Positions 39,886 to 40,130 of a stretch of DNA of 64,000 nt are shown piece after piece. The stretch's first letter is position 1; every line of letters starts with the position of its first letter. The notes below the pieces were generated by a model, which was not told the origin of the DNA, made no database searches, and saw only the letters and a program-made list of their open reading frames with translations. The position numbers and the translations under genes are program-made. The stretch spans positions 34,786 through 98,785 of the forward strand of contig JBCCYL010000014.1 in NCBI GenBank assembly GCA_039189765.1, given 5' to 3'. Source of the stretch: Cyanobacteria bacterium P01_F01_bin.150. Lineage in GTDB: Bacteria; Cyanobacteriota; Cyanobacteriia; CAKZMO01.

Positions 39886-40130
39886 GTCTAACTATTTATT
39901 AGAGGGAAACTTTCGGCCTAATCCACCTGTGAAGCAGATTAGCTAGAAGCTTGTCCGCCTAATCCACCCAAATGGCATATTAGTTAGAAGTTCGTCCGCC
40001 TAATATCCCTATATGGGTAGTTAGATAGAAATGATTCAGTCTAATATGCCGATATGGGTGATTAGGTAGAAATTCGTCCGCCCAACATCCCGATATGGGT
40101 GATTAGGCAGAAAAATTCAGTATAATCTCC
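39886..40130 (-). other. attI-like site plus 41-bp tandem repeat block, copy 3
   Basis: gtctaactatttattag (minus-strand GTTAGAC core); units start at 39916, 39957, 39998, 40039, 40080; gtataat at 40120. Confidence 0.8.

Follow-up and report, generated by a model that had tools for sequence, protein, structure and literature searches.

A phased array of palindromic units with integrase-box-like arms between attI and intI in cyanobacterial integrons

Introduction

In lambda attP and in cer/psi, phased protein sites flank the recombination core, and the higher-order complex that they form gives direction or acts as a topological filter. No arm-binding domain is known for the integron integrase IntI, nor is any integrase site known with ten to twelve IntI boxes.

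The closest described integron site is attI1 of class 1 integrons, which consists of a simple site beside intI, a GTTRRRY crossover box, and core-like 7-bp boxes on the intI side. These boxes are the direct repeats DR1 (GTTACGC) and DR2 (GTTATGG), as given in PMC3146285. The two repeats bind IntI1, and they are proposed to keep the integrase close to the crossover point and to favor attI1 x attC recombination (PMC8946536). PMC8946536 describes attIA of the Vibrio cholerae chromosomal integron as having no such direct repeats, and PMC3146285 says the same of most of 30 marine attI families. According to PMC4889954, attI has been detailed for few classes, and most integrons have an attI of unknown sequence. 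PMC8946536 presents it as an open question why certain integrases depend on accessory sites or host factors to capture cassettes.

The DNA considered here, hereafter the window, is a stretch of 64,000 nt from Cyanobacteria bacterium P01_F01_bin.150 (contig JBCCYL010000014.1, positions 34,786 to 98,785). It carries an attI site with the following plan: a crossover box, GTTAGAC on the minus strand, a 5-nt spacer, an L box, and then, as in related loci, four to six pairs of arms placed about 41 bp apart. Like that of attIA, the platform is chromosomal, with the simple site placed between the first cassette and intI; it resembles attI1 in its crossover box and in the core-like boxes on the intI side. 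In contrast to the two boxes of attI1, there are ten to twelve boxes in the array, and they are extended to 12 nt (..RGAAW). Moreover, they alternate as tail-to-tail pairs, whereas the boxes of attI1 are direct, and their strict phasing of about 41 bp extends through some 200-250 bp and runs into the likely -10 of intI. While lambda attP and cer/psi use a separate arm-binding domain or host proteins, the arms described here resemble the core box itself. No description of phased palindromic arrays in attI was found in the open-access full texts searched. The array is most likely the intI-proximal part of an extended attI that is typical of a cyanobacterial integron lineage and of some Chloroflexi.

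The attI site, the array and the intI remnant

Three copies of the platform are present in the window and are called A, B, and C in the order of their coordinates. Copy C starts with a simple site on the minus strand at 39886-39909, which was read directly and fits GTTRRRY. Its R box is GTTAGAC (minus strand, 39892-39886), followed by a 5-nt spacer and by the L arm ATTAGAGGGAAA on the plus strand at 39898-39909; the first left arm of the array is thus the L box of the simple site. The minus strand of the simple site reads CTCTAAT-AAATA-GTTAGAC in copy C and ends in ..GTTAGGC in copy A. Position and form are those of an attI site. The array and the core lie 5' of the intI remnant, which starts at 40194, and minus-strand genes lie on the far side; two inverted boxes surround a short spacer, one of them a GTTRRRY crossover box. 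In addition, the identity between copies ends at the crossover point, both among the paralogs of this genome and in a related complete genome (G023). Among the paralogs, homology ends at the ..AAC of the R box or just outside ..TAAC, and a divergence just outside ..TAAC is at the position expected for an attI crossover.

Five palindromic units of 41 nt occupy 39916-40120, with starts at 39916, 39957, 39998, 40039, and 40080 read directly from the sequence. Tandem Repeats Finder reports period 41 twice, at 39916-40004 (2.2 copies, 79% matches, score 108) and in an overlapping row at 39938-40113 (4.3 copies, 76%, score 148). The autocorrelation of the array has its best lag at 41 (identity 0.75, z 17.1), a value reached by none of 200 shuffles, and two control stretches flanking the array give z 0.0. 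The first-pass annotation had placed five units with an exact 41-bp period between attI and the intI promoter, and both statements hold; the array runs from a well-formed simple site to the likely -10 of intI. Of the half-sites that it described, the motif (A/G)TTAG across the semi-palindromic center is found in all five units, and the minus-strand GTTGGGC that it reported is present. GYCTAAT opens four of the five units of copy C; the remaining one, unit 5, starts with GCCCAAC, which is GTTGGGC on the minus strand. GCCCAAC is private to copy C, and the paralogs on contig C261 show GCCTAAT at this place.

Each unit is palindromic in itself, which gives the array two alternating dyad axes. The best parse consists of 12-nt arms of the form RTTAKRCRGAAW in tail-to-tail pairs with a center of 1-2 nt and with spacers of 14-17 nt between the pairs. 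In this parse, the array of copy C comprises six tail-to-tail arm pairs, and the five units contain ten of the 12 alternating arms.

The last right arm, ATTCAGTATAAT, has TATAAT (40121-40126, plus strand) at its outer end. This hexamer is found in all three copies of the window and in ten of the 15 copies of the genome, 67 nt 5' of the ATG, and it is likely to be the -10 of the intI promoter. The assignment rests on conservation, because a sigma-70 promoter scan listed no promoter in the array and no -35 reached 4/6. The leader from the -10 to the intI start (40127-40193, plus strand) is conserved in the alignment of the copies. It is followed by an intI remnant at 40194-40632 on the plus strand, in which fragments 1-45, 44-107, and 288-314 of TIGR02249 are recognized. 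The N-terminus is kept, a frameshift lies near 40355, and about profile positions 109-287 are lost internally; as the pieces lie in two frames, this is a frameshifted gene without its middle. Of the IntI clades, the pieces come closest to the main cyanobacterial one.

Copy A (29335-29535) has the attI core GCCTAAC at 29335-29341, an L arm, four units at 29366-29529, and TATAAT at 29530-29535. Copy B (35096-35161) consists of the right arm of unit 4, one full unit at 35115-35155, and TATAAT at 35156-35161. The four units of copy A and the single unit of copy B, each ending at gTATAAT, are as first annotated. In both copies this end is followed by the same leader and by intI 5' stubs on the plus strand, at 29663-29800 in copy A, where the stub is ended by a local repeat, and at 35229-35283 in copy B. 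The leader of copy A contains an AT-rich insertion of about 60 nt (29586-29664) with 30-bp tandem units, which is absent from copies B and C.

Copies across the genome and loss of units

The search of the assembly (10.6 Mb, 350 contigs, 99% complete) found the module at 15 places, 14 by BLAST and one by the unit profile, with zero to five units each by reading. An intact intI was not found in the assembly, where the best of ten matches reaches 109 bits against the TIGR02249 cut-off of 265. Units are missing from some copies, and the core of some is degenerate. The platform remnants, comprising attI, array, leader, and intI 5' stub, occur in same-orientation groups, 4-11 kb apart, amid cassette-like genes. 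The window holds one group of three (29335-29800, 35096-35283, and 39886-40632), and pairs are found on contigs C261, C17, C148, and C154.

The units are specific to their positions, and units 1-5 can be recognized in four five-unit copies (C14, two on C261, and C17). Position-specific units imply that five units are the ancestral state and that the shorter copies arose by deletion, not by free slippage. In copy A, the alignment indicates that one unit was lost and a hybrid of units 1 and 2 was left, and in the copy at C154:7460 the core and L arm are joined directly to the last unit. The array had been described as variable in copy number. The number does vary, but through in-register deletion of position-specific units and not through free variation. 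A slippage-driven hypervariable tandem repeat was considered and rejected, the units being orthologous in the four five-unit paralogs and not interchangeable.

The arms are better conserved than the spacers. Among the five-unit paralogs, 127 of 144 arm positions and 55 of 75 spacer positions are conserved (p = 0.0075), and a second comparison gives 131 of 144 and 54 of 75 (p = 0.0006); as kin are not independent, p-values here and below overstate the evidence.

It had also been suggested that the cassette junction of copy B lies within a unit, and that units can act as alternative crossover sites. This suggestion found no support. Array homology in copy B starts at the right arm of unit 4, the short copy on contig C43 starts at the same arm, the flank of copy B has no clear core, and no cassette junction inside a unit could be shown. 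Short copies other than copy B look like products of in-register deletion.

The three copies of the window and the other copies of the genome are most likely relics of attI machinery shortened by in-register deletions, and they are regarded as relics because no intact intI was found in the genome. For the same reason, the first-pass proposal that the units tune integration or expression through IntI is unlikely to apply to this genome at the present day.

Sequence and specificity of the arms

Alignment of 144 arms from 19 loci gives the consensus R-T(69%)-T(92%)-A(83%)-K-R-C(78%)-R-G(95%)-A(88%)-A(75%)-W. The outer 7 nt, RTTAKRC, match GTTRRRY except at position 5, so that the arms have a core-box-like end of the kind seen in the attI1 direct repeats; the resemblance of the half-sites to IntI boxes, proposed earlier, is borne out to this extent. 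In this genome, most arms depart from GTTRRRY by starting with A instead of G, and T occupies position 5 in 53% of the arms. The period is 40.63 +/- 0.79 bp (range 39-42.5) over 67 spacings in 21 arrays, in agreement with the proposed phasing of about four helical turns. The register of these arrays was set by reading, and four out-of-register rows and the rows after a parse failure were left out.

The arms are specific to lineage. They are of the GCCTAAT type in this genome and of the GCATAA, GTATAA, GGATAA, or GATCTGC type elsewhere, and their mean identity is 0.68 within a locus against 0.56 between loci. The L box follows the arms of its own array. Its identity is 0.68 to these and 0.55 to the arms of other loci, and it is higher to its own array in 17 of the 19 loci (Wilcoxon p = 7e-5, overstated by kinship among the loci); in the other two, L133 and L136, the L arm is closer to the arms of other loci. 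The arms are also specific to the element. Three genomes have two integrons each, with IntI proteins that are 70%, 76%, and 66% identical, and within each of these genomes the two carry different arms, for example TATACGGAAA against GATCTGCGGAA and GATAGGCAGAAA against GTTATCCAGGCA. Arms of the ATTAGGCGGAC type are nearly identical in this cyanobacterium and in Chloroflexi loci.

Distribution in other genomes

The window genome and 60 relatives were compared. DNA similar to the array region is present in 15 of these 61 genomes, and an intI above the TIGR02249 cut-off in 23. Upstream of intact intI genes, the relatives have the core, the L arm, and three to five units of 40-42 bp, for example at loci L042, L043, L039, L037, L038, and L032. 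A wider scan with an IntI alignment, using one genome per species, yielded 80 loci. About a dozen are cyanobacterial, and the others are spread over many phyla. An nhmmer profile of the ten units of the window, run for four rounds, found the copies of its own genome and gave 54 matches in 24 searched regions, with few in other lineages. Because the arms are lineage-specific and the unit profile hardly reaches other lineages, autocorrelation was used for the survey, which covered all loci with at least 200 bp 5' of intI. A generic palindrome counter mixed the two dyad types and was set aside as too noisy.

The best lag falls at 39-42 bp in 20 of the 27 cyanobacterial loci, 15 of which have z >= 2.5, and in seven of the 62 loci of other phyla, five of which have z >= 2.5 (Fisher p = 3e-6 for the 39-42-bp lag, with kin among the loci not being independent). 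Many of the cyanobacterial loci surveyed have an intact intI above the TIGR02249 cut-off. A survey upstream of other cyanobacterial intI genes had been proposed at the outset, and it recovers the same period. The five non-cyanobacterial loci with z >= 2.5 (L062, L065, L069, L073, and L071) comprise three of Chloroflexi type, one from Anaerolineae, and one from Blastocatellia. Several further Chloroflexi, Nitrospirota, and delta-proteobacterial loci show, by eye, a core with one or two palindromes, and the beta- and gamma-proteobacterial loci show the core only. In the phyla sampled, the phased array was not seen beyond cyanobacteria, a few Chloroflexi, and the one Blastocatellia locus.

In a tree built from 87 IntI sequences (FastTree, rooted at the midpoint, with X used in rows that contain stops), the main cyanobacterial clade has the array in 20 of 20 cases, 14 by autocorrelation and six by reading. 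In the neighboring Chloroflexi clade, the array is patchy. The array is restricted to one part of the IntI tree and is conserved beside intact intI.

A different layout was observed at L063, from a metagenome-assembled genome of Desulfonema sp. The last 130 nt 5' of intI hold four direct TTAGATWG-like boxes with a 27-bp period, which brings this layout nearer to the direct repeats of attI1.

The leaders of several loci contain a further element. An exact GTA-N8-TAC palindrome lies 3' of the last arm, at a constant position ahead of the intI start, in eight of the 27 cyanobacterial loci (L032, L033, L039, L051, L052, L053, L055, and L070) and in one of the 62 others, and shuffles give 0.89 loci; the corresponding place in the window (40140-40165) is degenerate. 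GTA-N8-TAC has the shape of NtcA/CRP-family sites, and it may be a second control site of intI. A LexA-type reading of the palindrome was set aside, as the GTA-N8-TAC spacing is unlike the cyanobacterial LexA motif.

Neighboring genes and local repeats

The first genes after attI in the window are three adjacent minus-strand ORFs of 400, 378, and 257 aa at 36276-39619. They match the NheB/NheC/NheA, MakA, and Hbl families weakly, at best with 74 bits against a cut-off of 500. These are families of tripartite alpha-pore-forming toxins, and the ORFs look like a three-gene cassette of this type in a marine cyanobacterium.

A family of GCGATCGC-rich repeats of about 200-330 bp is present in seven copies at 15583-35619 of the window, for example at 34241-34600, 35324-35619, 29818-29956, and 24691-24889. 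It is confined to this contig (seven BLAST matches) and punctuates the gene array like cassette-associated repeats, and such a repeat terminates the intI stub in each of copies A and B. The family was not confirmed as attC, since a crude attC scan (RYYYAAC...GTTRRRY with a stable fold) of 14000-40000 on both strands found none.

What the arms may bind

The anatomy of the array, its conservation beside intact intI, and the lineage and element specificity of its arms are observed features. On this basis, it is rather probable that the arms serve IntI as accessory binding sites within an extended attI and overlap the intI promoter as well. They would then play the role of DR1 and DR2 in attI1. 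Many IntI protomers would be held on one face of the DNA beside the crossover site, and occupancy of the arms would favor attI x attC capture. IntI bound at the last arm would repress the intI promoter, as expected where the last arm carries the -10. The lineage- and element-specific arms, their likeness to the L box, and the arm type shared with Chloroflexi point to an element-encoded protein as the binder, and intI is the only conserved gene of the platform. That arms can differ between two integrons of the same genome favors IntI as the binder over a host factor. Several points stand against IntI. Besides the departures from GTTRRRY in this genome, the two loci with a deviating L arm, and the lack of a known integrase site with so many boxes, arms of one locus may resemble each other through gene conversion or shared ancestry and not through a common binding protein. 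In addition, conservation has stayed higher in the arms than in the spacers in this genome, in which the search recovered no intact intI. Either the constraint on the arms in this genome would predate the loss of intI, or something else would bind them.

That something could be a regulator other than IntI, binding as a dimer to each 25-bp tail-to-tail palindrome and controlling divergent intI and cassette promoters, with the array as its operator. The tail-to-tail pairs are good palindromes with a center of 1-2 nt, some of them perfect at 12/12 (L133 and L043), the last arm carries TATAAT, and the arms stay conserved in a genome without intact intI. Moreover, complementary double deviations are enriched in tail-to-tail pairs, with 34 against about 14.6 expected. 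This excess is modest; it would fit a dimeric regulator or another symmetric binder, and also templated repair of palindromes. However, no candidate gene is conserved in the platform, where array and leader take up the whole interval from attI to intI, and a host regulator would not tolerate arms that differ between two integrons of one genome. Very similar ATTAGGCGGAC-type arms in cyanobacteria and Chloroflexi are also hard to reconcile with such a regulator, and the first arm, being the L box of the simple site, is an integrase site by the definition of attI. A regulator of this kind is therefore considered unlikely. Less likely again is an element that acts through structure, forming hairpins or cruciforms in single-stranded DNA (attC-like, or at a replication pause) or in read-through RNA. 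The array folds better than shuffles, with z = -3.85 for the plus-strand DNA and z = -5.84 for the minus-strand RNA and none of 200 shuffles as stable in either case, and 25 of 57 spacers contain CCY-N3-8-RGG. But any palindromic protein site folds well, so that folding energies do not discriminate, and the pairing is not kept. Of 1008 arm cells, both sides agree with the consensus in 651 and a single side departs from it in 294; in 34, both sides depart but are complementary, and in 29 both depart and are not complementary; 68% of the arm cells are paired, and 294 one-sided deviations stand against 34 compensated ones. Across the unit center there is no enrichment either, with 12 compensated against ten expected. 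One lineage-specific sequence is common to all arms of a locus, as for protein sites, and the Rfam covariance models have no match in the whole window at the gathering score; a tRNA scan of the window was likewise negative.

An attC site is an imperfect hairpin, R''-L''...L'-R', of 57-141 nt with GTTRRRY at R' and with extrahelical bases. The hairpin of a unit leaves no room for L boxes and extrahelical bases. The units were rejected as attC sites, having 41 nt, one box pair, mostly A at the start, and the uncompensated pairing given above. It is very improbable that the array has no function and is a satellite-like tandem duplication beside a dead gene. The lack of an intact intI in this genome, the loss of units, and the degeneration of some cores would suit this explanation, and it may be true of the present-day copies here. 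Yet intact intI genes of several cyanobacterial families, and of a second phylum, are preceded by the same layout; moreover, each unit is specific to its position, and conservation is higher in the arms than in the spacers.

Orphan sites and the biology of the lineage

The complete genome G023 has one intact intI with an array (L043) and three orphan attI-plus-array segments of 176-183 bp, 99% identical, which are fused to an IS1-family element with InsA-like and DDE_Tnp_IS1 ORFs. The orphans are L153 (2172-3384, G023:C1, near 1944 kb), L154, and L151. A shared stretch of 1214 bp, 99.6% identical, ends exactly at the attI crossover, after ..ACATAGTT, and is followed by differing sequences. The four attI copies of G023 diverge exactly after this motif, with GTT followed by AGAC, AGGC, AGGT, or CGAC. 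Attachment sites with arrays thus occur in G023 as one intact and three orphan sites, and in the present genome at 15 orphan places.

A further-reaching and tentative reading, given a rather low probability, extends the binding of IntI to the arms. The array would be a self-contained switch that combines capture with the shut-off of intI, its modules would have spread as orphan sites, and cyanobacterial integrons would be multi-site networks rather than single platforms. IntI protomers, as many as a dozen, would cover about 250 bp of in-phase DNA, and the covered array would present the crossover site and shut the integrase promoter together, the -10 being part of the last arm. Modules of attI plus array, cut at the crossover point, would spread, and one integrase would serve the orphans in trans.

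An integrase lineage with a long, phased, and lineage-specific array is a natural test case for the role of accessory sites, for self-regulation, and for the co-evolution of integrase and site. The array is also a sequence signature by which attI can be annotated in cyanobacteria and Chloroflexi, including orphan sites without an integrase gene.
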